64,000 nt of DNA from assembly GCA_040386535.1 (NCBI GenBank), contig JAZKFH010000055.1:19817-83816 (forward strand), written 5' to 3'. The notes under the pieces were generated by a model. It ran no database searches, was not told where the DNA came from, and was given only the letters and a program-made list of their open reading frames with translations. Below are positions 16,106 through 63,877 of this stretch, piece after piece (within the stretch, counting starts at the first letter, position 1; each line of letters opens with the position of its first letter). Position numbers and translations under genes: made by a program. This DNA is from Myxococcota bacterium (GTDB lineage Bacteria > Myxococcota_A > UBA796 > SXON01).

Positions 16106-16261
16106 CGCACGGAATGCCGGCCGGTAGGCCGGCATTCCGTCGCTTCCAGGTCTTGGCCGTCACGCTGTCGGGGTGGTGGTCCGCCGGAAAGCCTCCTCCG
16201 GACTCGCCGCCAACGTCTCGGGATGACGTTGGTGGGTTAGCCCATCGTGCGCTGAGAACTC

Positions 16262-18436: not shown

Positions 18437-18463
18437 AGGGCCATCCCGGTGCACGCGGCTGCG

Positions 18464-21715: not shown

Positions 21716-21791
21716 GCGTCGGCTCTCGGGGGGCGCATGGTAGCACACGGCCTCGACCCCGAAGTTGCGTGTGACCCCGACCCAGCTGTGC

Positions 21792-23756
21792 TTATCGAAC
21801 GATGGGCGTGATCCGCACCGGCGCATCCGGCTCCGGGATCGCCATGCCTTCCTCCACCCCCTCCTCCACCCCCAACTCAACGTCCCCCTCCGCCGGCCCG
21901 GCGACCTCCGCCTCCACCGCCGTGACCACCCCCGCCTCCTCCTGCAACCGCAGGATCGTGCCGTCGGCGACCATGGCGCGGAGCGCATCGTCGACCCGTT
22001 GTTTCAACGCCTCGTTACCAAGCTGCATGGCGATGCCGTACCGGTCGCGCGCGATGGGCGGGCCGGTGACACGCCAGCCCTCGGAGAGCTGGCCGGCCTC
22101 GATGGTGTCGAGGACGACAACGTCGGCGCTGCCGGCCTCGACGGCGGCGGTCGCCTTGGCGGTGGATGTGACGTCGACGAGGATGCAGGGGGTCGTTGCC
22201 ACCATGGGCGCATAGATCGCGTGGGCGGCGGCGCAGCGGACGGCGAACCAAGTGGGGTCGGGGTCGGGGCGGTCGCGGGGCACGAGCGCCCGCACCTCAG
22301 GCTCCAGGTAGGGGATCGAGTAGAGCTGCTCGAGCTCGCGTTCGGGCGTGATCGAGATGGCGCCAATTGCGAGGTCGACCTCGCCGCGGCTGGCCCGGGT
22401 ACGGACGTTGCCCGCGTGATCGAAGCGCACGCCCTGTTTGCCGAGCCGGCGGGCAAGCTCCTGGGCGAGGCGAACGTCGAAGCCGGTGGGCTCGGCGCCG
22501 GCGGTAAAGTCGAACATCGGCGGGAGCCTGGTCCCGATGGCGACGATCAGCTCGGGATCCTCGCCGGATGCCCGGAAGGGGGAGACAGGGCGCGGGGCAA
22601 CGTCGCGTTCAGCGGCCTCGACGACAGGGGCGGAGGCCGGCCGAGGAGCGTCGTGGCTATCCAACCACACAACCCAACAAATCACCGCCGCGAGGGCCAA
22701 CCCGCCGAGCATCAGCAGCGTGGTGAAGCAGCTCCACAGGGTAGCGAAGAAGCCGCGGCCCTCCCGCTTGGGCGGCGAAGTAGACGCGACCGCGGGCACG
22801 ATCTTGGCCGGCGCCGATGGCGGCGGTGCGGGCGGGGCCGTGGCCCCAGCGCGTGGTGCCTTGGCCGCCGGAGGCGGGATGGGTGAAGCGGCAGGCTTCA
22901 TCGGCGCACCCGAGATTCCGAGCGCGAACGCCTCACACCCAGGAAACCGCGCTTCCCGCTTGACCGCCAGCGCGCGCGCGATCGCCGCCGCCAAGACCGG
23001 GTCCGCCGCCACCAACGCCGCGGGCACCGTGACATCGCCCGTCACGATGGCGTTCATCGTGTCGAACTCGTTGTCGCGCGCGAACGCGGGAGTCAGCGTC
23101 GCGACCTCGAAGAGCACGGCGCCGAGGGAGAACACGTCGGAGCGGGCGTCCACGTCGTGGGCCGAGCGGACCTGCTCCGGGCTCATGTACGCGTACGTGC
23201 CCATCTGGCCGCCCGCGACCGTCGAGTGGTTGTTGGCCCTCGCAAGCTCGCCGCGCACCTTCGCGACGCCGAAATCCACCACGTAGGGGAACAACGCGCC
23301 GCCCGGTCGCGCCACCAGCAGCACGTTTTCAGGCTTGATGTCCCGGTGCACGACGCCGCGTTCGTGCGCATACGCCATGGCATCGAGCAGGGGGAGGGCG
23401 ATGGCCCGGACGGTGACCCCCGTGGGCGGTCCCGATCCGGAGGCCACGCGGGCGGCGATCCAATCCGCGAGCGTGCCACCACGGACCAGATCCATGACGA
23501 TACCGGCGGCGCCGGGCTCGGAGAGGATGTCGGTGACGCGCACGATGTTCGGGTGCTGGAGCTGGGCCTGCACGCGCGCTTCGTCGAGGAAGCGGCCCCG
23601 GATCTCGGGGCTGGTCACCCGTTCGGCACGCAGGAACTTGATGGCGTGCTCGCTCCCGAGCGTGACGTGGCGGGCGCGGTACACCTCCGCGAACGCGCCC
23701 CCGCCCAGAAGCTCCAGCACCTCGTACGTGCCGTACCTTTCGCCGGGAGCCGGCAC
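21792..23756 (-). CDS. Ser/Thr protein kinase with a transmembrane helix and an extracytoplasmic SBP_bac_3-type solute-binding domain
   Basis: Kinase: 'LLGGGAFAEVY', 'VVHRDIKPENVLL', 'VVDFGVAK', 'GTYAYMSPEQ'. TM: 'LLMLGGLALAAVICWVVWL'. SBP_bac_3-like: 'GFDVRLAQELARRLG..GEVDLAIGAISITPERE..YSIPYLE'. GTG-23756 directly abuts the stop of the upstream gene (23757-23759). Confidence 0.9.
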   Translation of the reverse strand: MPAPGERYGTYEVLELLGGGAFAEVYRARHVTLGSEHAIKFLRAERVTSPEIRGRFLDEARVQAQLQHPNIVRVTDILSEPGAAGIVMDLVRGGTLADWIAARVASGSGPPTGVTVRAIALPLLDAMAYAHERGVVHRDIKPENVLLVARPGGALFPYVVDFGVAKVRGELARANNHSTVAGGQMGTYAYMSPEQVRSAHDVDARSDVFSLGAVLFEVATLTPAFARDNEFDTMNAIVTGDVTVPAALVAADPVLAAAIARALAVKREARFPGCEAFALGISGAPMKPAASPIPPPAAKAPRAGATAPPAPPPSAPAKIVPAVASTSPPKREGRGFFATLWSCFTTLLMLGGLALAAVICWVVWLDSHDAPRPASAPVVEAAERDVAPRPVSPFRASGEDPELIVAIGTRLPPMFDFTAGAEPTGFDVRLAQELARRLGKQGVRFDHAGNVRTRASRGEVDLAIGAISITPERELEQLYSIPYLEPEVRALVPRDRPDPDPTWFAVRCAAAHAIYAPMVATTPCILVDVTSTAKATAAVEAGSADVVVLDTIEAGQLSEGWRVTGPPIARDRYGIAMQLGNEALKQRVDDALRAMVADGTILRLQEEAGVVTAVEAEVAGPAEGDVELGVEEGVEEGMAIPEPDAPVRITPIVR

Positions 23757-26543
23757 CTACGCCCCCAAGAGCCGCAGAACGCCGCTCTTGTCGGGCCCTT
23801 GCGCCAGCACGTCCGCGGGGGTGCACCGGGGACACCCATGGTCACACGGGCACCCCTGGAGCAGGCGCCGCACCCAGACGAGGGCGTTGTCGACCACGTC
23901 GGCGTCGAGGGCCTCGGCCATGCCCATGCCGCCGACGTAACGGTCCACTGCCACGATGCCGGCGGGGAGCTCGCCGTGGAGGCCAGCGTCGACGGGGATG
24001 ACGTGGACGTCGTCGTCGCCGGCGAGCAGGTGCACGAGGAGCACATGGTCGAGGCACGCGGCGAGGTGGCGGCGCGCGGGGAGGGCGGAGGGCTGGGGGA
24101 AGAACACGCCGCGTGCCCGGGTGCGGTAGCGGCTGGTGACGGGAGCGTAGGCGACCGAGCCCTCGCCGACGCGGATGCCGGCGACGGTCTCCAGCACGTC
24201 CACGTCGAACGAGGCGAGCGTGTAGACGCGGCGCTCCCTGCGGACGGTATGGGGGTCCTCGACCACGACGGCGTCGCGCACGGCCACGGCGAGCGCCGGG
24301 CTGGTCATGGCGCGGTCGGGCGCCACGCGGTTGACGTCCACGCGGTTGCGCTTGGCGTCGAAGGCGTGGAGGGGCACCTCGTACCGGAGGTCGCAGTCCG
24401 CGAACACGCGCTGGGGGTAGAAGCGGGTCTCGACGACCGCGCGATCGCAGCGTCCGAGGAGGCGCCCGTCGTTCCGATCACGGATCTCGACCACGTCCTC
24501 GGTGACCGTGTCGCGCAGGGTCCCGTCGAGGTCCCCGGTCTGGGCCGGCGCCAGCGCGACGCGCCAGAGGCCTTCGCGCGAGGGAGTACGTCGCAACACG
24601 AAGGCGTCGGCCTCCGCGGTGGGGTGCGCGTACTGGTCGGTGAGGGAGCGGCCGAAGAGCCCGGACAGCGAGTCGATGTCCTGGCGGCCCTCGCGCAACG
24701 CGGCGACGAGGTGGGTACGCGCGAGGTGCGTGTTGGCATAGCCGACGAGGGGGCGCGGCGCGGGGAGGCGGCCCTGGGCGGCGGAGGCGCGCAGGTTGTC
24801 GGGCCCGGTGAGGAGCCGGGTGATGGGGCTCGTGGGCCAGGCCCAGAGCGCGTGGTGGGTGCCGCCGTGTTCGAGGGGGAGGCGGTTCGCCAAGGTGCGC
24901 CACGCGCCGACGAGCCAGGTCTCGTCAAGCTGGCTGATGGATGCGTCCCCGCCGAGCGTGGCGCCACGATGCAGGCGTACGTCGGCCCCCCATACCTGCA
25001 CGCCGGCGTCGAACGCGCCGGTGGGATCGCCCACGGCGACGGCGAGCGCGCGCTGGGCGAGAGGCTCGGCGGCGCGGCGGGGCCAGGGGTCCCCTGGCTT
25101 CGTGACGAAGCGCTCGGCGGCGGGCCAGACCTTCACGGCCGCGGAGGAGCGGGGCGCGAACGGGACGGCGGAGACGCGGATGGGGGGGAAGAGCCTCTCC
25201 ACGAGGCCGATGGTGCCCGAGCCGCCGAGGCCGGTAGCGAGGACCGAGAAGCGCGCGCCGGCGGCGCCAAGCGCAAGCGCGAGACGACGGAGCGTGAAGA
25301 AGCGGTGGGTGGCGACGAGTGGCGAGCCGCGGTCGACCTGGGAGAGGACGACGAGGCCGACGGTGCGTGCCCACGGGACGCCGTCGCCGACGGTGCTGTT
25401 CCAGAGGGCGCGGATGCCACGCGAGGAGAGCTCGTTCGTGTCGAGGAACGCCACGGCTGGCATGCGGCGCTGGCCGAGGGCGAGCCGGAGTTCCTCCTCG
25501 CCGACGACGAGCGGACCGCCGCTCCAAGCGCCGCTCAGCACGAGGGCCGCAGCGACCGTTTCGCGGAGGACGCGTGGCTGCTCAGTTACGACGAGGCAGG
25601 GGATGCCGGCGCCCTGGGCCGCGAGGAGGATGCTCGCCGCGAGGAAGGTGGCCTCGGTGGGATCGGGGAGATCGCCCACGAGCCAGCCCTGGCCGGGCTT
25701 GTCCGCGAGGCGCGCGATCTGCTCCAGCGCGAGCGGGGGCGCTCCGATGGCGCCGACGTGCCGCCACGCGTCGGCCGCGAAGCCGGGCCCGCCGGCGCCG
25801 CGGACGGCGGGGATCTCCATGAGGGGAGGTGCGGCTACGTCGAGCGCTCCTCGCTCGCGCCAAAGCGCCGGGATGTCGACGCGGTCGGGGCGGAACGCCT
25901 CGACCTCGGCTTCAGGTGCGGCGGCTGGGGGGAGGGCGCGTCCGGCCAGGGTCCAGATGGCGAGGCAGGCCATCGCGACGGGGAGGAGGGCCGCGCCGTC
26001 GAGCAGGACGCGTGTGGCGGGCTGGATCTGGCCGACGACGTAGGCGTGGTCGAGCCCGAGGAGGGTGAGGAGCGTCGCGACGACGACGACGATCCCGGCC
26101 GGCCCGGCGAGGGGGATGCGGAAGGCGGGCCGGCCCTCGTCCCCGCGGAGCCGGAAGGCGGCGATGGCCGCGAAAGGGACGACAAGCGAGCCATTGAACG
26201 CCGCGAGCGGAAAGACGAGGTCGGCGGGGAGCGTCCTGGTGAGATCGAGGGCCACCGGCGCGCCGGGAACCGCGGGGACCGCGACCGGCCCGTTCACCCA
26301 GGCGGCGAAGGACACGATCCACGCGGCGGGATCGGCGCCGGAGCCGGTCACGAGCCCGAGGAGCCGGGCGAGGACGGCCCACCCGAGGAGCACGGGGACG
26401 GCCCAGCCGAGGGCGATGGCGGCGCGGCGGGCGCGGGTGCCCGGGCCGACAATCAGCATCGCCGTGAGCCACGCGAGCAACGGCCCGCCGATCGCTATCA
26501 GGCCGAGCAGGGCCTTGCCCCAGCCGGGGAGGGAGAAGGCCAT
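23757..26543 (-). CDS. Polytopic membrane protein with an apparently inactivated MrfA/YprA-type helicase core and a C-terminal DUF1998 zinc-finger domain
   Basis: ATG-26543 ('MAFSLPGWGKALLGLIAIGG') overlaps the upstream stop by 1 nt (TAATG). The N-terminal ~270 aa contain several hydrophobic helices. 'GDLPDPTEATFLAASILL' sits where motif I (GSGKT) is expected. 'VGLVVLSQVDRGSPLVATHRFFTLRRLALAL' sits where 'DExH..G..G.H.....RRL' is expected. The C-terminus 'GCPCDHGCPRCT' is the DUF1998 Cys cluster. The 5' 312 codons of ORF 23757-27479 are Arg/Pro junk that overlaps the upstream gene. Confidence 0.75.
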   Translation of the reverse strand: MAFSLPGWGKALLGLIAIGGPLLAWLTAMLIVGPGTRARRAAIALGWAVPVLLGWAVLARLLGLVTGSGADPAAWIVSFAAWVNGPVAVPAVPGAPVALDLTRTLPADLVFPLAAFNGSLVVPFAAIAAFRLRGDEGRPAFRIPLAGPAGIVVVVATLLTLLGLDHAYVVGQIQPATRVLLDGAALLPVAMACLAIWTLAGRALPPAAAPEAEVEAFRPDRVDIPALWRERGALDVAAPPLMEIPAVRGAGGPGFAADAWRHVGAIGAPPLALEQIARLADKPGQGWLVGDLPDPTEATFLAASILLAAQGAGIPCLVVTEQPRVLRETVAAALVLSGAWSGGPLVVGEEELRLALGQRRMPAVAFLDTNELSSRGIRALWNSTVGDGVPWARTVGLVVLSQVDRGSPLVATHRFFTLRRLALALGAAGARFSVLATGLGGSGTIGLVERLFPPIRVSAVPFAPRSSAAVKVWPAAERFVTKPGDPWPRRAAEPLAQRALAVAVGDPTGAFDAGVQVWGADVRLHRGATLGGDASISQLDETWLVGAWRTLANRLPLEHGGTHHALWAWPTSPITRLLTGPDNLRASAAQGRLPAPRPLVGYANTHLARTHLVAALREGRQDIDSLSGLFGRSLTDQYAHPTAEADAFVLRRTPSREGLWRVALAPAQTGDLDGTLRDTVTEDVVEIRDRNDGRLLGRCDRAVVETRFYPQRVFADCDLRYEVPLHAFDAKRNRVDVNRVAPDRAMTSPALAVAVRDAVVVEDPHTVRRERRVYTLASFDVDVLETVAGIRVGEGSVAYAPVTSRYRTRARGVFFPQPSALPARRHLAACLDHVLLVHLLAGDDDVHVIPVDAGLHGELPAGIVAVDRYVGGMGMAEALDADVVDNALVWVRRLLQGCPCDHGCPRCTPADVLAQGPDKSGVLRLLGA

Positions 26544-28936
26544 TACGCGGCACCTCCGTCGCGACGACCGAGGGGCACGATACCTGCTCCTCGGCCGACG
26601 TCGAGCACACGGTAGCCCTCCCAGGTACGGAGAAAGATTGCGCGGGGCGCCTGCCGGTCGGTCCAGAGGGGGGTGAGGGTGAGCGGGGCCTTTTGGAGGG
26701 CCCGTTCGATGGGATCCTTGGCGATGCCGGGGGCAACGGCCAGCGCCTCCCCGGCGCGCAGGCCGCCGACGGGATCCCCATTCTCGTCCCGGGCGGCGAC
26801 GGGGGCCGCGAGCGCGGCGGCGGCCCGACCCAGGAAGTCGGCGATCGCCCGACCGGCGGCTGTCTGGGCGGGCTCGTCGGCGAGCAGGCTGCGGGTGCCG
26901 AGGGAGCGGACCTGTTCGCGGCTCGCGCCGTCGATGGGGACGGCGTCGCCGCAGGGCACGTCGGGCTCCCCGTTGTCCGGCGGCCACGCCGCGGCCAGGA
27001 GGCGGGAGGCCCACACGTCCGGATCGCTCGCCTCGCGGCAGCGGCCGACCCACTGACTCACGTAGTGGGACGGGAGCAGCGGGCCGTGCAAGAGGTCGGG
27101 CTCGCCGACGAGGCCGCCGAGATCGTCCAGGGCGGCGTCCGCGGCGGGGGGGACGCCCATGGCGACAAGAGCCTGGCGCGCGCGGTCGCGGGCGCTGGCG
27201 ATGGTGAGCTGCATGGCGGTGACGCGGGCCAGGGCGCCTTCGACGGCCAGCAGCGCGGCGCGACGGACCCGGTGGCGACGGAGCTCCAGCTGGTCGTCCG
27301 CTTGCCGGGACGTGCGGCCGCCGCCGCCCTTGCTCCAGATCGCGCGCAGCGCTTGGGTCCGCGCGGTCAGGAGCTCGCGGACCCTTTGGCGGGCGAGATT
27401 TCCGGCGAGCCAGCCCCAGCCGATGGCGACGAGCAGGCCGATGGCGGCGCCGGCGGCCCACGGGAGGAGGTCTTGCCACGGGAACGGTGCCATCGCAGCA
27501 GCTGCGGTCACGACAGGCGCGACCATCGTGGGGGAGGGCATGACGGGCGCGCCCGCGGCGGAGGTCGTAGCGTGGCCGAGCCCGGCGATGACCACCGTTG
27601 CCAGCCCGCCCACCGCGATCCCCACTGCGGCCGCGCCCGTCCGAACGAGCCCCGGGGCCGGCAGCGCTGCGACAGCGGCCTCGAGCTCGACCCGGTGCGG
27701 ATCCGGCGGCGGTCCGTCGGGCCCCGCGCCGAGGAGGCCCACGCGAGTCTGCTGGTCGCGGAGCTGCGCGGCGACCTGCTTCAGGCCGAGCTCGATCTCC
27801 AGCAGCGGCTTCAGCGACTCGCGGCGCAGATGCCCGCCGAACAAGCCCGCGATACGACCATGGATCCCGCGCACGAGCTGCGCCTCCTCGTTGTCGAGGT
27901 GGCGGAGGAGTGCCTCCAGCTGGCCCTGGTCGACGCCCGTGAGCGTGCGGTCCTGGGTGGCAGGCGCGAAGAGGACCGCGTACCGTTCACGGATCCGCGC
28001 GCCCTCCTCGAACGCGCCCACCCGTACTCTGTCCGGCAACCCCGACGCTGCCCCTGCGAGCGTCGCGGCGAGCTGGCGGCAGCGCTGGGCGGCCTCGGAG
28101 GTGTCCTCGAACGGGCGCACCCACTCCACATGCTCGAGGCTCCGCACCGCGGCGAGTCCTTCGGCGGGATCGGTCACCGGGCGGGCTTGCACGCGCGCGA
28201 CCAGCGTGGAGAGCGCATCGTAGGCGGCGCGCTGCACGGCATAGTCGCGGATCCGGGCCTCGGGAACATCCAGAGACGCGACCGAGAAGAACGCCACCTT
28301 CGGCTCCCCGGCGGGGAGGTGGGCGAGACGGCGGCTCACCGGGTCGCTCTGGCGCAGCCCCGATCCCACCAGCGCGACGGCGAAGGAGGCACAACTCGCG
28401 AGCACCACGCTCGCGGCGAGCGGCCCGGCGAGGGTCATTTGCGAGAGCAGCCAGATCCGCGCCAGGAGTGGCGGCGCGGACCCGCTCTCCACCCACCGCT
28501 CGAGCTTGTAAACGCGGTCGAGGGCGCGGCGGGCCACGTCAGTATCGCCGAGCGGAGGTAGGACGAGCACGACGTGGAGCGCGGCGTTGCGCTGCTCGGG
28601 GGGCCGCGACAGGTCGAACATGACCCGGTAACGGTCGTGAACCACCCGCGTGATCTGCTCGGCGAGCACCACCAGATCGTCGTCACCGCCCGCGAGGACG
28701 TGTTGGAACGCGAGCAGATCGAGCCGTCGCTCCGACTGCTCAGTGGCGAACCTACCGGCCTGGAGGAGCTCCTTCAGGACAGGCCCCAGCCGCTCGCCGG
28801 CCTCGCCCGCGACGGGCGTCGCCACACGGCAGATCAGCTCGTCTTCGCCCGAGAGAGACGACTCGATCCGCTGCAGCACGCTCCCGCCGAACGCGCCCAC
28901 TCCCACGAGAACGGTGGGGTTGCTCATGACCGGCAC
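26543..28936 (-). CDS. Degenerate tubulin/FtsZ-like paralog with transmembrane helices (797 aa)
   Basis: The N-terminus 'NPTVLVGVGAFGGSVLQRI' mirrors the T1/G-box of the upstream tubulin-like protein ('PTLFVGLGGNGGKIVNLL'). The position equivalent to the GGTGSG loop reads 'HVVLVLPPLGDTDVA'. TM helices: 'AAAVGIAVGGLATVVIAGLG' and 'LLPWAAGAAIGLLVAIGWGWLAG'. GTG-28936 overlaps the upstream stop by 1 nt (alternative ATG-28927). The fold assignment is tentative. Confidence 0.65.
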   Translation of the reverse strand: MPVMSNPTVLVGVGAFGGSVLQRIESSLSGEDELICRVATPVAGEAGERLGPVLKELLQAGRFATEQSERRLDLLAFQHVLAGGDDDLVVLAEQITRVVHDRYRVMFDLSRPPEQRNAALHVVLVLPPLGDTDVARRALDRVYKLERWVESGSAPPLLARIWLLSQMTLAGPLAASVVLASCASFAVALVGSGLRQSDPVSRRLAHLPAGEPKVAFFSVASLDVPEARIRDYAVQRAAYDALSTLVARVQARPVTDPAEGLAAVRSLEHVEWVRPFEDTSEAAQRCRQLAATLAGAASGLPDRVRVGAFEEGARIRERYAVLFAPATQDRTLTGVDQGQLEALLRHLDNEEAQLVRGIHGRIAGLFGGHLRRESLKPLLEIELGLKQVAAQLRDQQTRVGLLGAGPDGPPPDPHRVELEAAVAALPAPGLVRTGAAAVGIAVGGLATVVIAGLGHATTSAAGAPVMPSPTMVAPVVTAAAAMAPFPWQDLLPWAAGAAIGLLVAIGWGWLAGNLARQRVRELLTARTQALRAIWSKGGGGRTSRQADDQLELRRHRVRRAALLAVEGALARVTAMQLTIASARDRARQALVAMGVPPAADAALDDLGGLVGEPDLLHGPLLPSHYVSQWVGRCREASDPDVWASRLLAAAWPPDNGEPDVPCGDAVPIDGASREQVRSLGTRSLLADEPAQTAAGRAIADFLGRAAAALAAPVAARDENGDPVGGLRAGEALAVAPGIAKDPIERALQKAPLTLTPLWTDRQAPRAIFLRTWEGYRVLDVGRGAGIVPLGRRDGGAA

Positions 28937-31900: not shown

Positions 31901-32151
31901 CGCTTGCGGGCCACGAAGGCCTGGCGATCGAACGCGGAGACCAGGAAACGGTTCTCGCCCGGGACGTTCCGCTGCTTGTCGAGGTCGTCCTTGTTCGTGT
32001 CGATCGCGATGAAGTGGGTCATCGCGGAGATGCGGTCCCAATTCGGGTGGCGACGGAGCTTGCCGGCGAGGAGGTTGACGATCTTCCCCCCGTTCCCGCC
32101 GAGCCCGACGAACAGCGTCGGCTTGAACTTGTCCTTGGCGATAATTCCCAT
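28936..32151 (-). CDS. Tubulin-like GTPase (divergent tubulin/FtsZ superfamily, Tubulin_2/FtsZl-like) with a ~800-aa C-terminal extension
   Basis: ATG-32151 is preceded by GAGGGG. 'FVGLGGNGGKIV' is a T1 loop, and 'VVLYASIAGGTGSGGFIPMAY' carries the tubulin signature GGTGSG (nt 31618-31638, checked on the DNA). Total length is 1071 aa. The 5' 39 codons of ORF 28936-32268 were discarded. Confidence 0.85.
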   Translation of the reverse strand: MGIIAKDKFKPTLFVGLGGNGGKIVNLLAGKLRRHPNWDRISAMTHFIAIDTNKDDLDKQRNVPGENRFLVSAFDRQAFVARKRGELEEREDTMVTQWIPQNYKFRGAQGAGAGQIRIESRLGLYYNLEDDNRARIRKKLAEVLDEATRRDNPWRDNADRVVQVVLYASIAGGTGSGGFIPMAYLLRDVVLDNGWGRPNVVGVLSMPTTFLDKVKPELQADIMANGYAALKELEYLTRQLGYEGGQEEIEFHYDPGKPEHRMVKDRPFSLTYIVDRPDRVSIERYEHAVADASFLQIFSPLLGAQAGEYDNYDKHQKKLANGHFSVHYAAFGTAILHLPRRDIVKYASLRYVARAFRDYLCFGGDDPAFRVNYGDPAFEQQDRAVKDRQIDDKFLAYVAWRAQDEERSNIKGVFSAIQAQTAKDARSIPVAFRAKLAQIYERLTELIAVNDIEPQMISPGNPSIERPIANLRKDFAESQTKVRGYLEAQVADLTNGRTFGGFFNDMEVNPIAQRYFLIQLLREAFIAPTEDEEEGFLKQEAGGRRDIDGQGVQDEKARLQTDLATHANPGFFTKIVDRENAAFRAAKQRAIGFYQDLAQEHREDLKRTFWRTFEGKLREVGGTLLSAFRNVSQVAEFTARETEAATERFRKDPGADPTSDVAQYYLDAEALRDDRRRERLWNVFYAHRLDRASLFDTKKIFAEVTTAFAPARDADGRLRERDASEIVAVVKDRLGAQANDVYARALESMNLDLGSALELEQRYIACLDDGVDFDALRREGKLDDTIAAVDARRVERGLEDRLKRVTDDCVLLAQMDHSKRGDTTVRPADVFLAGLHSRFATDEAGALGSILRRVASGVQLLPDWEERDSLVLYRAQLGVPVYWFKNVASVLYPAYRKVRDDKTRSYPLHIEAAWESEPGLPDLDPLEIRRAEERRVQEDEVRRQRDERARRVRAFTLVNLFGGILEEDGVLSWSSSGARGTLGKERAVAFQGYEALKPGLRTDIEEDAVRQWGQLRVDTGGRGRLRAELGALQERLKRAYGKANAEGRDAEVRFIEEEREAARGLDAEVSG

Positions 32152-32177
32152 CTGCCGCCCCTCTACTCGAAATACGA

Positions 32178-34262: not shown

Positions 34263-36466
34263 CCGGGGTCCACCTGGAAACAGGTGCTGCCGGCGCGGTA
34301 GATCGCGCGCGGCGACGGGGCGTGGCCGGTACGGCCGTCGGGCACGTCCTTCCAGGAGCGGGTGCGCGGGTCGTAGACCTCGACGGGGACCGACGCCAGG
34401 AGGATCAGGCGATTGGGCCCGCGCGTCGCCCGCAGGCGGACCAGCGCGTTGCGCGTGCGGCCGTTCACGTCCCCGTCGGCGTGCAGGCCGAGCGCGGCGT
34501 CCCGGTAGAAGCCCGAGGACGCGCCGGGGCACTCGACCAACACGAGCGCGCTGGACTTCTTCAGGCCCTTCTCCGAGCCGGCGACCTTCACCGTCGCGGA
34601 CGGGGAGAAGCGCGCGGGCCGGAGGACGCCGAGCAGGAGGAGGCCGAGCAGGGACAGCACCGCGGACGGGCCGAGCCAGACGCCGTGACAGCGGTACCAG
34701 GGAAGACCGGTGACCTGCCACCGGAGCGCGACAGTCTTCTGTTCAGCGGCGAATTGGGGCGTGAGCGGCATCACGCGCAAGCCGGCGTCGGGCGGCGAGC
34801 GATCGGCCGCGCAGCGCGGCACGTCCAGGCAGAGGAGGAAGAACGGGTTCAACGGATCGAGCGCCGCCACCTGCCGGACGGTGCCGAGGTCCATCTTGTC
34901 ATTGTCGCCGTTCGCGTTTCGGTACCCGAAGACGGGCCGCGCCTCGCACGTGCCGCTGCCGACGGCCTCAAGCTCCCAACCGTGCTCCATTGCCGCCTGT
35001 GACCGGCTCATGTCGAGCGGCTTGCAGGTCTCGCTCCAGGGCGTCCCTGCGGCGACCGTGCCGAAGTCCAGCACGTCGTCCAGCACGAGCTTCAGCGGGA
35101 GGCGCACGCGTACCTCTACCGGCGGCATCACGACGGGTGTGCCGGCGGTGCCGCCTACCGACGCGGGCACGATCTCCAGGCGCCAGGAGTGGCTGCCGAC
35201 GCTCGTGTACACGCCGTCGAAGCGGTACCGGTCATCAGAATGCGTAGACGAACGGGCGAGCTCGGCGCCGTTGTCGTAGAGGATTACGGCGGTGGCGGGG
35301 TCGGCGAGGAGCGCGTCCACGCGCTGGCGGGCCGCGCCGCTCTCGGGGCGGACGAGGCTCACCACCCCGCCGCAGGGCAGGCCGACGTAGCAGACGCCGG
35401 GCAGGTCGGAGACGTCGAAGCCGATGCCGATGTCGCTGACCGTCGCCTGGGCAACGGCCTTGCCGGGGCAGACCACGCGCCCCCCCGCGTTGCCGCCCGC
35501 CCGGATGGTGAGGGCGCGAGGGGTGGGGGAGGGGGGCGGTGTCCACGTGGCCTGGAGGTTCGCGTCGGCGGGCAGGGTCACGTCTGGGGTGCCGGCAAGG
35601 CTCACCGTGAACGTGAGCGAGGGGGACCCGGCAGTGCTGGAGGGGACCGGCACCTGGTCGGCCTTGTCGAAGAGGGCGGCGCTCAACGAGGTAGGCTGCC
35701 CGCTCGCGAGGGCCGCGCCGGCGGCGGGGGCGAGGACGCGGGCGCGGAAGGCGCAGACGTCGACGGTGAAGGCCAGTGGCGCGGAGGTGGGCCCGCCCAT
35801 CGTCTCGTTCTTCGCGAGGGTGGGGGTGTCCGGGACGAACGTGACGGTGGGGGCCGCGGAGGCGGGGAGGACGATGTCGGCAACGACCCTGCCGTCGGGC
35901 CGGATGCGGGCGGGGACGATCCTCGCGGGGCCCACGCCGTCATCGACGACGAAGTGTCCGCCCGCGATGGGGTGCACGGCGCCCTGGTCGTCGCGCAGGC
36001 TCGCCTCGATGGTGACGGTGTCGTCTACGCTGTAGGGCCCCGGCGAGACGTGGTCGATCGTCGGGCGCAGCACGGTCGGGGCTGGAGGCGGCGCGACGCG
36101 ATCCTGCCCGTCCACAACGTGCTGGAAGATTGTGTCGGCCTTGGCGTGTTTTGCGCACAGCGGCGACTCTGGGTCGAGCGCCCGCCAGGTCGGGTTGCGG
36201 GAGAGGAACGACGACTGGCACGTGCTGTCCTGCTCGTCCCAGCAGCTCCAGCATCGTGTGCCGTCCGTCACGAAGTTGTGATGGTGCCATGCCCCGTGCA
36301 CGTTGCTCTGGGCGGGCTGGCCGCAGGCATCGGCGTTGTTCGGCGGTGTTCCGTCGTAACCACCGACACAGTAGGTCACGCCGAGCTGGAAGAGGGCGTC
36401 CAATGGCCCGGCGTGCGCGGGCGGCGCCGTGGCAAGCAGCCCGATGAGGAGCGGGGTGGCGGACAT
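34259..36466 (-). CDS. Exported Cys-rich / beta-rich (Ig-like?) protein with a C-terminal TM helix and the same cytoplasmic tail module
   Basis: Signal peptide 'MSATPLLIGLLATAPPAHAG'. Cys-rich N-terminal segment ('YCVGGY..DACGQ..RCWSCWDEQDSTCQ'). TM 'LGPSAVLSLLGLLLLGVL'. Tail 'RPARFSPSATVKVAGSEKGLKKSSALVLVECPGASSGFYRDAALGLHADGDV'. ATG-36466 overlaps the PP2C stop by 1 nt. Confidence 0.75.
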   Translation of the reverse strand: MSATPLLIGLLATAPPAHAGPLDALFQLGVTYCVGGYDGTPPNNADACGQPAQSNVHGAWHHHNFVTDGTRCWSCWDEQDSTCQSSFLSRNPTWRALDPESPLCAKHAKADTIFQHVVDGQDRVAPPPAPTVLRPTIDHVSPGPYSVDDTVTIEASLRDDQGAVHPIAGGHFVVDDGVGPARIVPARIRPDGRVVADIVLPASAAPTVTFVPDTPTLAKNETMGGPTSAPLAFTVDVCAFRARVLAPAAGAALASGQPTSLSAALFDKADQVPVPSSTAGSPSLTFTVSLAGTPDVTLPADANLQATWTPPPSPTPRALTIRAGGNAGGRVVCPGKAVAQATVSDIGIGFDVSDLPGVCYVGLPCGGVVSLVRPESGAARQRVDALLADPATAVILYDNGAELARSSTHSDDRYRFDGVYTSVGSHSWRLEIVPASVGGTAGTPVVMPPVEVRVRLPLKLVLDDVLDFGTVAAGTPWSETCKPLDMSRSQAAMEHGWELEAVGSGTCEARPVFGYRNANGDNDKMDLGTVRQVAALDPLNPFFLLCLDVPRCAADRSPPDAGLRVMPLTPQFAAEQKTVALRWQVTGLPWYRCHGVWLGPSAVLSLLGLLLLGVLRPARFSPSATVKVAGSEKGLKKSSALVLVECPGASSGFYRDAALGLHADGDVNGRTRNALVRLRATRGPNRLILLASVPVEVYDPRTRSWKDVPDGRTGHAPSPRAIYRAGSTCFQVDPG

Positions 36467-37803
36467 CAGGGCGTGGGCGAAGGAGTGGGGGCCGGAGCGG
36501 CGTCGGGGGCCGGAGCGGTGGGTTCCTTCTCCGGTGCTTCTTCAGCCGGAGCTGGGGTTCCAAGTGAGGGCTTCGGCGGCTCCTTCGCCTCCGCTCCCGC
36601 GGCTTCGGCGCCGGTGGTCTCGGCGCGCGCGGGGACCTCGGCGGCTCCGAAGTGAGTGAGTCCGAGCGCCATGGTGACGACCAGCATCGTGACCATTCCC
36701 GCGCCAAACGCCGCGCCGAGCAACACCGCCAGCATCGGGAGGTCCATGACCCGTCGCTCCACGGCCGCGCGCGCGGGCTTGGAGCCGCGTCGTGGGGCCG
36801 CCTCGGAGACGGTGGGCTCGTCCGCTGGCCGGCCGTACATCGGCGAGACCTCAGCGCGTGGAGCGGGGCGAGGCGCCACCCCGTCGGGCAGCGTGCCCTC
36901 GGAGACGTACGGGTCCTGGGGAACGTGCGGTGGTTCGCTCCGGGATGGGACGGGAGCCGCTGGCTCCGGGACCGGCGCGATCGGCCGCATCGGCGGCTCG
37001 GTGAGGCGGGTCCCGGGCAGGAACGGGGAGGCGGGCTCGGTTCGGCGCGCGGGGATCTGGTCCGCCTCGTAGAGCGCCACGATCACCGTGATGTTGTCGT
37101 GGCCACCGCGGGCGTTCGCGGCGTCGACCAGGCGCTGCGCCGCGGTGGCCGGATCGGTGCCGGCCATGAGAGCCGCGATCTCCTCGTCACTGAGGAGATC
37201 GTAGAGGCCGTCGCTGCACAGGAGGAGCACGTCGCGCGGCTGGAGCTCCAGCGGCTCGTTCCACGAGGTCGGCTTGAACGTGTCGCGCACGCCAGCCCCG
37301 CCGCCGAGCGCTTGCGTCAAGATGTGGGCGTCGGGATGCGATTTTGCCTCCGGCGCGGAGAGGATGCCGCGGCGCACCATCTCGGCCACCCGCGTGTGGT
37401 CCTCCGAACCGGACACGCGCACACCGTCGCGCAGCTGGTACAGCCGGCTGTCACCCACCCAGCCGATCCAGCAGCGGTCCCCGGTCACCCGCGCGACGAC
37501 AGCCGTGGTCCCCATGTCCGGCATGCCGCGCCGCTCGGCCTCCGCCACCACCGCGGCGTTCGCGCCCACGAGCGCATTGAAGATGACGACGGTCGGGTTC
37601 GCCGTCCGGTCCGCGCGGAGCGACGCCAGGATGAACTCCGAGGCCACTTCGCTCGCCACCTCTCCGCCCTCGTGGCCGCCCATGCCGTCGCACACGAGCA
37701 GGATCCAGTCGTCGTCGCGCCCCTCGACACGGAAGTTGTCCTCGTTGAGCGAGCGCTCCATCCCGACGTGCGAGAGCGCGGCGACCTGCAGTGGCGGCCT
37801 CAT
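36466..37803 (-). CDS. PP2C-family Ser/Thr phosphatase with a Pro-rich linker and a C-terminal TM anchor
   Basis: PP2C motifs: 'SLNEDNFRV', 'LLVCDGMGGHEGGEVAS', 'GTTAVV', 'VGDSRLY', 'LLLCSDGLYD', 'GGHDNITVIV'. TM 'MLAVLLGAAFGAGMVTMLVVTMALGL'. ATG-37803 overlaps the upstream stop (ATGA). Confidence 0.9.
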   Translation of the reverse strand: MRPPLQVAALSHVGMERSLNEDNFRVEGRDDDWILLVCDGMGGHEGGEVASEVASEFILASLRADRTANPTVVIFNALVGANAAVVAEAERRGMPDMGTTAVVARVTGDRCWIGWVGDSRLYQLRDGVRVSGSEDHTRVAEMVRRGILSAPEAKSHPDAHILTQALGGGAGVRDTFKPTSWNEPLELQPRDVLLLCSDGLYDLLSDEEIAALMAGTDPATAAQRLVDAANARGGHDNITVIVALYEADQIPARRTEPASPFLPGTRLTEPPMRPIAPVPEPAAPVPSRSEPPHVPQDPYVSEGTLPDGVAPRPAPRAEVSPMYGRPADEPTVSEAAPRRGSKPARAAVERRVMDLPMLAVLLGAAFGAGMVTMLVVTMALGLTHFGAAEVPARAETTGAEAAGAEAKEPPKPSLGTPAPAEEAPEKEPTAPAPDAAPAPTPSPTP

Positions 37804-39629
37804 TGTTCCTCCCCGGGCGGCTTCACGGGCGCGAAGACTGTCTGTGAGCGCTTCCTCGGGGGCGCCGCTTCCGACCCGCCAAGGTTCACGACGGAGCCCG
37901 CCGCGGTCTGGGGGAGCTGGGCGGGCGCCGGGTTCGCCTCGACCGGCGGGGCCAGCCCAGGCTGGTCGATCCGCAGCTCGAGCTGCCGGGAGAGGCCGAG
38001 CACATCTCCGTGTTTGAGGGCGACGCGCTCGTTCTTCTGGAGCAACCGGCCGTTCACGTACGTGCCGTTGGTCGACTCGAGGTCGGTCACGAAGACAGTA
38101 CCGAGCTTGTAGAGCTCCAGCTTCGCGTGGCGCCCGCTGACCTGGGCGACGTCGAACACGAGGTCGACGTCGCCTTCCGCCCGCGCGCCGAGGGTCAGGC
38201 TCTGCTTGTGCATCCGGTACATGGGACGGAGCCCGGACCCGGAAGGCGCCGTCACCAGGAGCAACCGGGTCTCGGGGAGGCCAGCGATGGCGAAGTCGTC
38301 GTGCGTCGGGAGCGGCGCGGCCGGAGCCACGTAGTCATGCGCGGGCTCGACGGACGGCGCGGCCCTGGGAGGGCTGGGAGGCGGAACCGGAGCGGGAGGT
38401 ACAACGGACGACCCGGCGGACCTGGGTGGAGGACCGGCGGCCGGTCCACGCTTCCGGCCGAGCAGGAAGGCGAGGAGGCCGAGGCCGAGGGCGGTCGCTA
38501 CGAGCGCGCTCGCGCCGAGGATCCACCAGCCCCAAGGGGGCGACGCGGCCGGCCCAGGGGTGGTCACGGGCACCACCGGGTCAGCCGCAGGTGGCGTGAC
38601 CGTGGCCGTTGCGGCGTCGTCGGGGCAGGCCGCCGCTGCGGGGCCGAGGCCGTCCTGATCGAACGGCACCCGGTCCGACCACGCCCGACGCTGACCGCCC
38701 TCCACGATCTCGACGGAGAGCGCATCGGAGGGGGTGGCGCCTGACGCCGCGGGCACGCCGCAGAACGAGAGGTCGAGCCAGACCGTGCGGCGGGCGCTCT
38801 CCGCGATCGAGACGAGCTGGGCCGGGGCGGCGGCGTCCCCGCCGGTGACGCTGATGCCGCCGGTCTCATCCGCGAGGCGCCGCATCTCGTCGAGGCGCTG
38901 CGCGAGGTTCTTGCCGCGGGTGGGGGGGAACACGACCACGTGCACCTCGACGCCCCGCGAACGCGCGGAGGTGACGAGGTCCTCGATGCTGTAGGCGGTC
39001 GACTCCTCGCCCGCGTCGGTGAAGACGACGACTTGCCGGAGCCCACCCGCCGCTACCGGCTGCCCGGCGGCGGCGTGCTCCACGCACTCCTCGACCAGCG
39101 ACTTCAGCCGGGTGACGGCTTCCTTCCCGGGGGTCACGGCGTCGAGGAGGCCGCCGATGCCGGGTCCGTCCGTTGCCTTGCCAACGACATTCAGCGTGGT
39201 TCCGAAGGTCACCACTTCGGTCGTGTGCCGCCCATTCGGCGGAACCGCGTTGGCGTACCGGCGCGCGAGGGCCACGGCGTCCAGCGTGTTCGGCGCGAAC
39301 GAACCCGAAGCGTCGAACGCCAGGATCGTGTAGACAGGCTCCTGTTCGGCGCGCGTGACCTTGTGCACCGTCGCGCGGCCACGTCCCGGTCCGAGCACGA
39401 CGCCGAACGAGGATGGCTCGAGCTGCGGCGTCGTGATGCGGGCGAGCAGCGCGGGGTCACGAATGTCGACCGACACGCGGGCCGCGCCGTGGCGGGCGGG
39501 CGTGAGGGTGGTGACCGCCACACCCTGCCCGGACGCCCACGCGGGGCCCGTGAGCATGAGGAGCACAAGCATACTTGAGACGATGGGGCGCCCGGCACGC
39601 GAGGCGTAGTCGTGCTCGGAGGGAGACAC
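37800..39629 (-). CDS. Exported vWA domain, TM helix and cytoplasmic FHA domain protein
   Basis: Signal/anchor 'IVSSMLVLLMLTGPAWASG'. MIDAS 'YTILAFDASGSF'. TM 'WWILGASALVATALGLGLLAFLLG'. FHA 'LTLGARAEGDVDLVFDVAQVSGRHAKLELYKLGTVFVTDLESTNGTYVNG'. Confidence 0.9.
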   Translation of the reverse strand: MSPSEHDYASRAGRPIVSSMLVLLMLTGPAWASGQGVAVTTLTPARHGAARVSVDIRDPALLARITTPQLEPSSFGVVLGPGRGRATVHKVTRAEQEPVYTILAFDASGSFAPNTLDAVALARRYANAVPPNGRHTTEVVTFGTTLNVVGKATDGPGIGGLLDAVTPGKEAVTRLKSLVEECVEHAAAGQPVAAGGLRQVVVFTDAGEESTAYSIEDLVTSARSRGVEVHVVVFPPTRGKNLAQRLDEMRRLADETGGISVTGGDAAAPAQLVSIAESARRTVWLDLSFCGVPAASGATPSDALSVEIVEGGQRRAWSDRVPFDQDGLGPAAAACPDDAATATVTPPAADPVVPVTTPGPAASPPWGWWILGASALVATALGLGLLAFLLGRKRGPAAGPPPRSAGSSVVPPAPVPPPSPPRAAPSVEPAHDYVAPAAPLPTHDDFAIAGLPETRLLLVTAPSGSGLRPMYRMHKQSLTLGARAEGDVDLVFDVAQVSGRHAKLELYKLGTVFVTDLESTNGTYVNGRLLQKNERVALKHGDVLGLSRQLELRIDQPGLAPPVEANPAPAQLPQTAAGSVVNLGGSEAAPPRKRSQTVFAPVKPPGEEQ

Positions 39630-39630
39630 G

Positions 39631-40464
39631 CTACGTCCCGTTCGGGATCAGCAGAAGCACGAGCCGCGAGCCCCCGAGCTGCAGGACCGAGCCATGGCGC
39701 ACGTCCACCTGCTCCCCGTGGATGGCCTGCCCATCCAGCACGCTGCCGTTGGTCGAGTGGTCGATGAACGTCGCGCGGTCCGGCTTGATGAAGAGGAAGC
39801 CGTGGTCGCCGCTGACGCGCCCGTCGTCCACCGACACGTCGCACTCGGGCCCGCGCCCGATCTTGTTGCGGCCAGCGCGGAGGGGGTGGACGCGACCGGG
39901 GTCCGATGGGCCGCGGTGCTCGATGAGCACGCCGCGGATCTGGGGGCTGGCGGCGGCGGGACCCGTCGACTCGATGATCGTGCCGTGCTTGCGAGGCGGA
40001 GCCGGGGGAGGCGACGCGTGAGGTGCCGCGTTTGGAGGCGCCGGGCGGGGGCGGACGGCCTGGCCGAATGGGTCGTCGCCGTTGTTGATCGGCGGGCGCG
40101 GCGGGAGGGGAGCTGCGAAAAAGTCAGGCTCACTCGGGGACGGCAGGCCCGGCGGCGGCGCGTACTCGGTGTGGCGCTTCTGCCCGCTCGACAGCGGGGG
40201 CGCGGCCGTCGGGTTCGAGGAAGGCGCGGCCGCCTGGTTCACGGGCGGCGGCGGCGGGAGCGCCGCAGTGGGCGGCGGGCGCGCCGGGCCGGGCTCGTAC
40301 TGGGTGTGACGCTTCTGGGAGGGCGCTTGCCCGCCGGCGGGGACGGCAGATCCCTCGAACTGTGTGGCGCGCTTCGTCGCAGAGGAGAGCGGGTACCCGC
40401 ACATCTCGCAGACCACGCGGTCGGGGGCGTTGTCATTCATACAATTCGAGCAGCGCACACGCAC
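39631..40464 (-). CDS. Zinc-ribbon, Pro-rich linker and FHA domain protein (first gene of the operon)
   Basis: Zn ribbon 'CSNCMNDNAPDRVVCEMCG'. Pro-rich linker with four basic-x-Thr motifs. FHA 'NKIGRGPECDVSVDDGRVSGDHGFLFIKPDRATFIDHSTNGSVLDG'. Confidence 0.9.
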   Translation of the reverse strand: MRVRCSNCMNDNAPDRVVCEMCGYPLSSATKRATQFEGSAVPAGGQAPSQKRHTQYEPGPARPPPTAALPPPPPVNQAAAPSSNPTAAPPLSSGQKRHTEYAPPPGLPSPSEPDFFAAPLPPRPPINNGDDPFGQAVRPRPAPPNAAPHASPPPAPPRKHGTIIESTGPAAASPQIRGVLIEHRGPSDPGRVHPLRAGRNKIGRGPECDVSVDDGRVSGDHGFLFIKPDRATFIDHSTNGSVLDGQAIHGEQVDVRHGSVLQLGGSRLVLLLIPNGT

Positions 40465-42602: not shown

Positions 42603-42652
42603 GGAGGTGGTGGGTCCCGTGATACGCGCGGCCAGTCCTTGGGGCCCCGTCG

Positions 42653-60697: not shown

Positions 60698-63866
<3,169 letters not shown>

Positions 63867-63877
<11 letters not shown>

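Follow-up and report, generated by a model that had tools for sequence, protein, structure and literature searches.

A conserved nine-gene myxobacterial operon encoding a tubulin-like GTPase, a probable pseudo-tubulin and a predicted pseudo-helicase

Introduction

The tubulin-like family FtsZl1 was defined in 2010 by Makarova and Koonin (PMC2875224), who noted linked genes for vWA proteins and kinases, along with diverged GTPases, OmpA-like proteins and lineage-specific membrane proteins, and who predicted that these operons remodel membranes. Their lone myxobacterial case, in Plesiocystis, consists of genes for a vWA protein, FtsZl1, a hypothetical protein and a histidine kinase. Kaur, Burroughs, Iyer and Aravind (2020; PMC7159879) described tubulin+vWA and kinase+PP2C+vWA neighbourhoods as GAP1-N2 GTPase-centric conflict systems, which are enriched in multicellular prokaryotes and which they read as cytoskeleton-like complexes whose assembly at the membrane is regulated. 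In the literature after 2010 that we found, FtsZl1/Tubulin_2 proteins are cited only as an outgroup or as a component of conflict systems. Here, we analyse a nine-gene locus within a 64,000-nucleotide stretch of a Myxococcota bacterium (assembly GCA_040386535.1, contig JAZKFH010000055.1, positions 19,817 to 83,816; hereafter the window). This myxobacterial operon is a real, conserved and uncharacterised system, in which an FtsZl1 protein is accompanied by a probable membrane-inserted pseudo-tubulin, a predicted helicase-derived pseudoenzyme and a phospho-signalling set.

Organization and coding status of the locus

The genes are numbered g1 to g9 in transcription order, and all of them lie on the minus strand between positions 21792 and 40464 (aa, amino acids; TM, transmembrane helix or segment):

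g1, 39631..40464, minus strand: zinc ribbon, proline-rich linker and FHA domain; cytoplasmic; 277 aa
g2, 37800..39629, minus strand: signal/anchor, periplasmic vWA, TM 370-388, cytoplasmic proline-rich linker and FHA domain; 609 aa
g3, 36466..37803, minus strand: PP2C Ser/Thr phosphatase with a C-terminal TM anchor, 358-376; 445 aa
g4, 34259..36466, minus strand: exported, beta-rich protein with TM 596-614 and a conserved ~115-aa cytoplasmic tail; 735 aa
g5, 32178..34262, minus strand: exported vWA, beta-rich region, TM and a tail module as in g4; 694 aa
g6, 28936..32151, minus strand: FtsZl1/Tubulin_2 GTPase domain (~13-356) and a ~700-aa unannotated C-terminal extension; 1071 aa
g7, 26543..28936, minus strand: probable pseudo-tubulin N-domain, helical stalk, TM hairpin and C-terminal α/β domain; 797 aa
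g8, 23757..26543, minus strand: five N-terminal TM helices, predicted MrfA/YprA-like superfamily 2 (SF2) core without ATPase motifs, and MZB (DUF1998); 928 aa
g9, 21792..23756, minus strand: Hanks Ser/Thr kinase, TM 347-365 and a periplasmic SBP_bac_3 sensor; 654 aa

The original prediction had placed nine same-strand coding sequences at these positions with tight junctions, and both are confirmed by the open reading frames (ORFs), which are present on the minus strand from g1 to g9, by codon-position composition and by public gene calls. The junctions comprise a 1-nucleotide gap (g1/g2), ATGA overlaps (g2/g3 and g4/g5), 1-nucleotide overlaps (g3/g4, g6/g7 and g7/g8), a 26-nucleotide gap (g5/g6) and a 0-nucleotide gap (g8/g9). 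Three genes start at ATG codons internal to longer ORFs, namely g5 (34262), g6 (32151) and g8 (26543), and a Shine-Dalgarno-like AGAGGGG lies upstream of g6. The G+C content of the window is ~71%; at the third codon position (GC3) it amounts to 0.87-0.93 per gene in all nine, compared to 0.42-0.58 at position 2, which marks each of the nine frames as coding. The nine genes are called likewise on an identical public contig, where g1 is two codons shorter. No terminator-like site was found on the minus strand within the 21792-40464 unit.

The tubulin-like GTPase g6

The N-terminal domain of g6 matches Tubulin_2 (PF13809) with an E-value of 3.8e-52 (178.2 bits against a cut-off of 27), covering positions 1-355 of the 356 in the profile. 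It bears the tubulin/FtsZ signatures GLGGNGG (T1, G-rich loop) at residues 16-22 and AGGTGSGG (T4) at residues 171-178 (GGTGSG at 172-177), which, together with GAGAGQ and GEYDNY, are invariant in 17 g6-family sequences down to 43% identity. By its sequence, g6 belongs to Tubulin_2 and has the full set of nucleotide-binding signatures. A word-indexed protein search yielded 621 homologues at E<=1e-5; the best 120 of these share 41-94% identity with g6, and all but three of them are 1050-1104 aa long. HMMER searches of g6 against the PDB, with the single sequence or a profile, found nothing, and a relaxed Pfam search (E<=1) gave nothing credible for the C-terminal 711 aa.

The predicted membrane-inserted protein g7

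At the sequence level, g7 has no Pfam match, nothing credible for its C-terminal domain in the relaxed Pfam search, and no PDB match by HMMER with either the single sequence or a profile. BLASTP between g6 and g7 gave a 17-residue N-terminal match alone (E=0.16), and a full-length profile-profile run aligned 26 columns with a probability of 14%. Searching 1.84 billion proteins with a g7 profile retrieved 111 g7-type clusters (50% identity), none of them annotated, and zero Tubulin_2 proteins.

The AlphaFold2 model of g7, built from 21 homologues, is confident, with a predicted local distance difference test (pLDDT) score of 83.8. Its N-terminal domain has six alternating strand-helix units (residues 8-250) and is followed by a long helical stalk. 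Two hydrophobic helices (~428-455 and 487-515) come next, separated by a disordered loop of ~30 residues, and a C-terminal α/β domain completes the chain. Structural similarity search using Foldseek against the PDB placed the ~300 N-terminal residues on dozens of tubulins and FtsZ proteins with probabilities of 0.97-1.0, at E-values of ~1e-2 and TM-scores (target) of 0.25-0.33; the same search against BFVD gave nothing significant. Profiles of the g6 and g7 N-domains enriched with 91 and 120 sequences, and only these, gave by hhalign an alignment of g7 residues 6-248 on g6 residues 10-362 over 227 columns (E=6.6e-4, probability 27%). In this alignment, VLAGGDDD of g7 stands opposite IAGGTGSGG of g6, and SVASLDVPEARIRDYAVQRAA of g7 opposite GTAILHLPRRDIVKYASLRYVA of g6. 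The signature loop of g7 lacks GGTGSG and keeps an AGG remnant, and the tubulin C-terminal (activation) domain is absent from the model.

Model, Foldseek and hhalign thus support the earlier view of g7 as a degenerate tubulin paralog, and g7 is probably a membrane-inserted pseudo-tubulin. The lack of both the G-box and the tubulin C-terminal domain argues for a pseudo-tubulin that, judged by its motifs, is not a second GTPase. A further claim, that the assembly is powered by a pair of tubulin-like GTPases, does not hold, since the nucleotide-binding motifs occur in g6 only. Other Foldseek matches of g7 were rejected as homology: those to α-pore-forming toxins have TM-scores of 0.1-0.24 and a root-mean-square deviation (RMSD) above 30 Å, and those to dynamins have TM-scores of at most 0.24, an RMSD above 24 Å and probabilities of 0.25-0.54.

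The predicted pseudo-helicase g8

The C-terminal part of g8 matches Pfam MZB/DUF1998 (PF09369) at 2.9e-7 (31.5 bits against a cut-off of 24.2), and its last ~270 residues are homologous to MrfA/YprA (HMMER profile against PDB 6znp, 5e-9). The AlphaFold2 model (pLDDT 76) has five N-terminal TM helices, and the positive-inside pattern places the protein beyond them in the cytoplasm. The TM domain itself gave nothing credible in the relaxed Pfam search. Foldseek revealed that the soluble part of g8 resembles MrfA (6znp_A), including two RecA-like SF2 domains arranged as in MrfA, with an E-value of 8.2e-20 over 775 columns and a TM-score (target) of 0.52, followed by the helicases Hel308, Lhr and Pol-theta (PolQ).

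Neither a Walker A GK[ST] nor a DExH (DE.[HD]) motif occurs anywhere in g8, which has six lysines in 928 residues. Where motifs I and II would be expected, the g8 family keeps GDLPDPTE and VDRG, these places being set by the order of secondary structures and not by residue-level superposition. The zinc cluster CPCDHGCPRC is invariant (C898, C900, C904 and C907). The lost ATPase motifs, the invariant cysteines and the MrfA fold together point to an ATPase-dead, zinc-binding helicase shell, MrfA-derived, under purifying selection and attached to the membrane by a five-TM anchor. The dead MrfA-like helicase with a DUF1998 cysteine cluster that had been proposed from the DNA alone is supported by these Foldseek and motif results.

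Signalling and envelope proteins

The FHA domains of g1 and g2 were matched by Pfam at 8.4e-12 and 1.2e-15, respectively. In g1, the phospho-threonine-binding motifs GR..SxxH..NG are intact; its DZR/Zn_Ribbon match is weak, and the zinc ribbon has the form CxxC-x10-CxxC (CSNC...CEMC at residues 5-22). The vWA domain of g2 is weakly seen in the window copy (TIGR03436, 1e-5, residues 92-259), with the metal ion-dependent adhesion site (MIDAS) DASGS present, and g2 orthologues match both Pfam VWA and FHA. g3 matches PP2C_2 (Pfam, 1.1e-16) and the Stp1/IreP-type PP2C model (1.6e-57), and its metal-binding motifs DGMGG, GDSR, SDG and GHDN are all there. In g9, Pkinase (1.9e-41) and SBP_bac_3 (5.4e-18) were matched by Pfam, and the motifs AIK, HRDIKPEN and DFG are intact, so that the Hanks kinase is active-looking by sequence.

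No credible Pfam match was found for g4, and g5 matches VWA_2 at 1.4e-4, below the Pfam cut-off, with an intact MIDAS (DTSCS). The ~290 C-terminal residues of the two proteins are homologous (BLASTP, 3e-23) over a region that spans the TM helix and the ~115-aa tail, and the tail motifs RP..F, GFYR, KWEPV and VYR.G.L.F are conserved across 108 sequences. The relaxed Pfam search gave nothing credible for the tails or the periplasmic parts; a Kelch_1 match was rejected as a 16-residue fragment. The threonine that follows the TM helix (TVKV/TVRI) was considered as an FHA target and dropped, being not conserved in the 108 tails.

Overall, the catalytic and reader motifs are intact in g1-g3, g6 and g9. 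TM segments are predicted in g2-g5 and g7-g9. In the predicted topologies, the vWA and SBP domains face the periplasm, and the cytoplasmic side has g6, every catalytic and reader domain, and what is soluble of g7 and g8. From domain content and hydropathy we infer phospho-threonine gating and a span across the envelope. The gene set, domain architectures and topologies first proposed are borne out by Pfam, NCBIfam and motif checks; the profile searches matched Tubulin_2, FHA, PP2C, DUF1998, Pkinase and SBP_bac_3, as had been expected, with VWA weak or sub-threshold and its MIDAS intact.

Conservation and modularity

Scanning 185,579 species genomes with a back-translated pattern gave 241 loci, of which 80 were retrieved and listed (L numbers below); Myxococcus xanthus is not among the 80. 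The listed loci are myxobacterial, from Archangium, Vitiosangium, Polyangiaceae, Labilithrix, Haliangiales, Bradymonadales and Sandaracinaceae. All nine genes are found in the same order in Pyxidicoccus, and the order g1-g8 is seen again in loci with 44-59% g6 identity, both in Pyxidicoccus and in several lineages of metagenome-assembled genomes (MAGs). Loci with g6 identity of at least 40% are termed clade A, and the distant ones (30-36%) clade B. Searching with the nine proteins by tblastn gave the following counts, the denominators being clade-A loci with enough flank:

g7 downstream of g6: 45/49 loci
g8 downstream of g6: 42/43 loci
g5 upstream of g6: 48/60 loci
g4 upstream of g6: 27/47 loci
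a PP2C: 31/39 loci
g2: 25/39 loci
g1 upstream of g6: 20/39 loci
a kinase within 10 kb: 23/32 loci

In 49 of 56 clade-A loci, g6 has a tail-module gene upstream. With hidden Markov models (HMMs) from enlarged families, and with three cases hand-corrected for ORF coordinates, a g7-family gene directly follows g6 in 53/53 clade-A and 13/14 clade-B loci, or 66/67 Myxococcota loci. These tblastn and adjacency counts support the expected synteny across Myxococcota.

The third position is more variable. In clade-B Polyangiales (L079 15712-19659 and L076 14206-18141), g6 and g7 are followed by a gene for a TM protein of ~1310 aa with a Pfam DEAD match, a Walker A of GSGRTT (Lys to Arg), DDLD for DExH and no cysteine cluster; the one in L076 matches the g8 HMM weakly (2e-16), and a vWA gene comes next in the Polyangiales loci. 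From its sequence, this protein looks like a less degenerate relative of g8. Bradymonadales loci, the other clade-B form, have g6 and a g7-like gene, the latter recognised by the g7 profile, and no helicase-like gene, with vWA and kinase-PBP genes nearby. Where the signalling genes recur, their sensors differ between loci.

The system is thus modular: g6 and g7 form an invariant core, a helicase-derived third gene is present in most lineages, and the accessory parts, common yet variable, are the tail-module proteins g4/g5 and the phospho-signalling genes. The original prediction of a single unit stands in part. Tight packing and the absence of an internal terminator agree with it, but the modularity, the variable signalling genes and the Archangium loci do not: in eight of the latter (L011, L013, L014, L021, L029, L043, L045 and L075), a variable, unrelated insert of 1.1-5.7 kb separates g5 from g6.

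The insert of L029, an Archangium MAG, encodes on the opposite strand (4200-10000) an NsnB/AriA/GajA-like ABC ATPase (PADLOC NsnB, 1e-49), a 301-aa partner of the ATPase and a DUF2381 protein. A 703-aa ORF in the g5-g6 gap of Archangium gephyra was considered as a g4/g5 paralogue and rejected by comparison. Seven MAGs with the cluster (L023, L026, L039, L042, L047, L049 and L056) are titled Rickettsiales, Enterobacteriaceae or Alphaproteobacteria; their clusters are of high-GC myxobacterial type, the isolate names of L042 and L056 contain 'MYXO', and all seven labels are probably wrong.

Neighbouring genes and distant relatives

Two genes on the plus strand lie upstream of g1:

TM pseudokinase, 40527-42602, plus strand: Pkinase 5e-15, with HHE for HRD and HFS for DFG
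SBP_bac_3-LysM protein, 42653-43756, plus strand: SBP_bac_3 5e-13 and LysM 7e-8

The pseudokinase is transcribed divergently from g1, and a second kinase upstream of g1 recurs at other loci; the pair (40527-43756) may be accessory to the system. Beyond it, a kinase-FGE-sulfatase fusion is encoded on the minus strand at 43728-46181.

On the other side, the stretch 14001-22000 has a G+C content of 0.655-0.669, compared to about 0.71 for the window, and is probably an acquired island. A 1083-aa ORF (18464-21715, minus strand) lies 76 nucleotides downstream of g9 on the same strand; its residues 568-713 match PDC-S11 (2e-28), a candidate defence family of PADLOC. Neither Pfam nor the PDB gave a match for this ORF, and it does not recur next to the cluster at other loci. 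Two further large ORFs on the minus strand have high GC3: 8879-14416 (1846 aa, GC3 0.87) and 60698-63955 (1086 aa, GC3 0.96).

In Pyxidicoccus, two kinases follow g8, one of them with an Lcl_C domain, and a restriction-type gene (Mrr_cat-ResIII-Helicase_C; L001 22907-23225, Pyxidicoccus parkwayensis) lies just downstream of the cluster. Distant Tubulin_2 genes, with 25-28% identity over the N-domain only, occur on megaplasmids. That of Thermus oshimai plasmid pTHEOS01 (L088) stands in a series of vWA, tubulin-like protein, 677-aa hypothetical protein, BrxL, 3'-5' exonuclease and giant RecQ, with TROVE upstream. That of an Azospirillum ramasamyi plasmid (L089) encodes a tubulin-like protein of 1146 aa, next to a 710-aa one-TM protein and an 1118-aa protein with three N-terminal TM helices. 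This trio resembles g6-g7-g8 in size and TM pattern, with no homology detected, and the partners on both plasmids were rejected as relatives of g7 or g8 for want of any detectable relation.

Proposed mechanism and alternative explanations

The reading we favour, to which we give about an even chance, is that the locus encodes a signal-controlled, inner-membrane-tethered FtsZl1 polymer system. On the cytoplasmic side of the membrane, g6 would form polymers with GTP; g7 would anchor these to the membrane and double as a non-hydrolysing pseudo-subunit, either nucleator or cap, a role modelled by analogy on the non-exchangeable tubulin subunit or on FtsA/ZipA for FtsZ. g8 might act as a membrane scaffold or as a ligand-binding, possibly nucleic-acid-binding, adaptor. 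The shared cytoplasmic tail of g4 and g5 would couple the polymer to the periplasmic vWA and beta-rich domains. Assembly would be switched by threonine phosphorylation, with g9 as its writer and g3 as its eraser; the readers would be the FHA domains in g1 and g2, and the sensor the periplasmic solute-binding-type domain of g9. The output would be local remodelling of the membrane or envelope. A housekeeping role of this kind is favoured by the strong conservation of g6, its single-copy, vertical-looking inheritance in Archangium and the housekeeping flanks of several loci. Several points weigh against this reading. No phospho-acceptor was identified, the TM-adjacent threonine of the g4/g5 tails being not conserved. 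A dead helicase has no obvious part in a device that remodels membranes. The assignment of g7 to the tubulins is of moderate strength (Foldseek E~1e-2; hhalign probability 27%), and the search against the viral library also brought up generic Rossmann folds. Finally, a sizeable share of loci lacks the signalling genes or has them elsewhere, and gating is possibly lineage-specific.

A conflict role in the manner of Kaur and Aravind, anti-phage and abortive or kin-protective, is possible though somewhat unlikely. Here, a threshold-gated tubulin-like assembly would be the effector, the g7 hairpin would compromise the membrane, g8 would sense or decoy invading nucleic acid or a phage anti-helicase factor, and the kinase/PP2C/FHA module would set the threshold. 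DUF1998/MZB helicases are indeed found in defence contexts, such as DrmB of DISARM. Both tubulin+vWA and kinase+PP2C+vWA sets have been classed as conflict systems (PMC7159879), and this published classification, a patchy distribution (241 loci in 185,579 species genomes, all in a Myxococcota-type context) and defence-type neighbours or inserts favour such a role. The latter are the PDC-S11-like ORF downstream in the window, the Mrr_cat-ResIII helicase beside the Pyxidicoccus copy, the NsnB/AriA/GajA-like ATPase between g5 and g6 of the Archangium MAG, and the BrxL, exonuclease and giant RecQ beside the Tubulin_2+vWA pair of the Thermus megaplasmid. However, the other flanks are housekeeping genes (carboxyltransferase, thioredoxin, acyl-CoA dehydrogenases, RecO and MgtE), PADLOC has no model for g1-g8 apart from a weak PP2C match, with a generic kinase match besides, and no full-length homologue was found in phage or plasmid collections. 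The stalk and hairpin of g7 do weakly match α-pore-forming toxins by Foldseek, but TM-scores of 0.1-0.24 at an RMSD above 30 Å are not meaningful as homology. Moreover, g6 varies unusually little between orders in both sequence and length (best 120 of 621 homologues) and occurs once per complete genome listed and in several Archangium species, which makes it look more like a vertically kept cellular machine.

The soluble part of g8 matches a DNA-bound helicase structure throughout and has its zinc cluster intact. By analogy, g8 could have kept the DNA-binding surface of MrfA and tether DNA at the membrane, with g6 filaments moving or positioning it. Tubulin-family DNA segregation is well established for TubZRC and PhuZ, TubZ and PhuZ moving plasmids or phage DNA. 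Actinobacterial tubulin systems, in addition, include a fusion to HRDC, a helicase-associated DNA-binding domain (PMC7159879). Such a DNA-handling device is nevertheless quite improbable: the cluster has no centromere-binding or partition adaptor and no replication or recombination gene, the locus is chromosomal and has periplasmic sensors, and DNA handling cannot be the core function because the Bradymonadales keep g6 and g7 without a helicase-like gene. The chance appears slimmer still that two or more unrelated units merely abut, a generic FHA/PP2C/kinase and vWA set standing beside an independent g6-g8 module. In its favour, myxobacterial Ser/Thr kinases are very many, and the 6 kb around the cluster contain three more; many loci lack the signalling genes or have them relocated or on the opposite strand; and Archangium has insertions between g5 and g6. 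Against this stand the eight junctions in the window, all between a 4-nucleotide overlap and a 26-nucleotide gap, the recurrence of the g1-g8 order in Pyxidicoccus and several MAG lineages at 44-59% g6 identity, and the vWA and kinase genes beside Tubulin_2, or kinase-Tubulin_2 fusions, in other phyla.

Finally, the g6-g7-g8 triad could be a new kind of prokaryotic machine, which combines a tubulin-like polymer that the pseudo-tubulin nucleates at the membrane, a trigger in the form of a membrane-anchored dead-helicase sensor of foreign or damaged nucleic acid and, as its control, a trans-envelope kinase/PP2C/FHA threshold circuit. We regard this as doubtful; if true, social bacteria would have in the triad a device of their own, based on tubulin, for innate immunity or programmed membrane remodelling.

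Significance

FtsZl1/Tubulin_2 proteins were predicted in 2010 and still have no known function, and the locus supplies them with a defined and conserved partner set: a putative obligate pseudo-tubulin membrane partner, a predicted helicase-derived pseudoenzyme and a complete write/erase/read phospho-switch. The cluster occurs in the cultivable genera Archangium, Pyxidicoccus and Vitiosangium, and is therefore directly testable by genetics, biochemistry and cryo-electron tomography. In addition, a tubulin and an SF2 helicase, both apparent pseudoenzymes, are under purifying selection beside a putatively active paralogue, which bears on the evolution of cytoskeletal heteropolymers and of scaffold proteins.

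Comparison with known systems

In type VI secretion systems (T6SS), the membrane Hanks kinase PpkA, the PP2C PppA and the FHA reader Fha1 gate an envelope machine, and a periplasmic vWA domain joins in sensing. The locus shares the kinase/PP2C/FHA set and the periplasmic vWA; however, its vWA domains sit on separate proteins and not on the kinase, and the module gated is tubulin-like. No T6SS domains were found in the nine genes or their flanks, the TIGR03354 VI_FHA (TagH) model scoring 31 bits against a cut-off of 120. In Actinobacteria, PknA/B, PstP and FhaA/FhaB(FipA) control FtsZ and the divisome. Both systems combine a tubulin-family GTPase with a Hanks kinase, a membrane PP2C and FHA adaptors, whereas the actinobacterial one uses FtsZ, and the locus has the FtsZl1 protein g6 and no division or cell-wall genes. 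The g1 and g2 FHA domains match the FhaB/FipA model below threshold (30-37 bits against an equivalog cut-off of 125).

By its architecture, a nucleotide-cycling subunit with a same-fold, non-cycling partner, as proposed for g6 and g7, recalls α/β-tubulin and BtubA/B, although g7 lacks the C-terminal domain and the signature loop. The layout of g7, with a head, a long helical stalk and a membrane hairpin, is similar to that of BDLP/IniA-type dynamins; the Foldseek matches are weak and no homology is claimed. With MrfA/YprA (6znp/6znq/6zns), g8 shares the fold of its soluble ~700 residues, the MZB domain and the four-cysteine zinc site. Whereas MrfA/YprA is a repair helicase, g8 would be a pseudo-helicase in the membrane, without Walker A and DExH. 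PADLOC-DB v2 gave no model match for g1, g2 and g4-g8, a generic kinase match for g9 and a weak PDC-M21C match for the PP2C.

No experimental study of the system and no paper joining DUF1998 with tubulin was found in the literature. The original prediction had known of no characterised system of this composition; we found none either, but the class itself had already been predicted (PMC2875224; PMC7159879). Ser/Thr kinases fused to Tubulin_2 domains in Planctomycetota (PMC9871819, PMC11032199) give independent support for a functional link between kinases and FtsZl1. Among the conflict systems of PMC7159879, the Firmicute version has two tubulin-domain and two vWA genes, one vWA being extracellular on a membrane-bound protein, and a third theme combines an active kinase, often carrying a fused zinc ribbon, with an active PP2C and vWA; the locus resembles both. 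These themes are reported to be non-overlapping and confined to Firmicutes and Actinobacteria, whereas the locus joins them in Myxococcota and adds FHA readers and a putative dead helicase. The nine proteins contain no [AG]x4GK[ST] P-loop, and no GTPase or fn3 Pfam match was found in them or in the flanks, which separates the locus from the GAP1-N2 systems, whose defining components are a P-loop GTPase with zinc ribbons at its N-terminus and an FNIII-repeat protein.

The closest likeness is to the FtsZl1-vWA-PK operons of PMC2875224, with which the locus shares a Tubulin_2/FtsZl1 protein of ~1000 or more aa with a C-terminal extension, MIDAS-intact membrane vWA proteins and kinases. g6 is linked to g2 and g5 (vWA), to g9 (kinase) and to membrane proteins, and this linkage recurs across loci, as in that class. 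Many of those operons have a diverged P-loop GTPase or an OmpA-like protein, neither of which is among the nine genes; conversely, PMC2875224 has no pseudo-tubulin or helicase-derived partner and does not mention FHA, PP2C or DUF1998, all of which are found here, the first two as predicted partners. Altogether, the locus is a variant of the computationally predicted FtsZl1-vWA-kinase class (PMC2875224; PMC7159879), not categorically new, which lacks the GAP1 GTPase and adds putative pseudo-tubulin and pseudo-helicase partners to the class.

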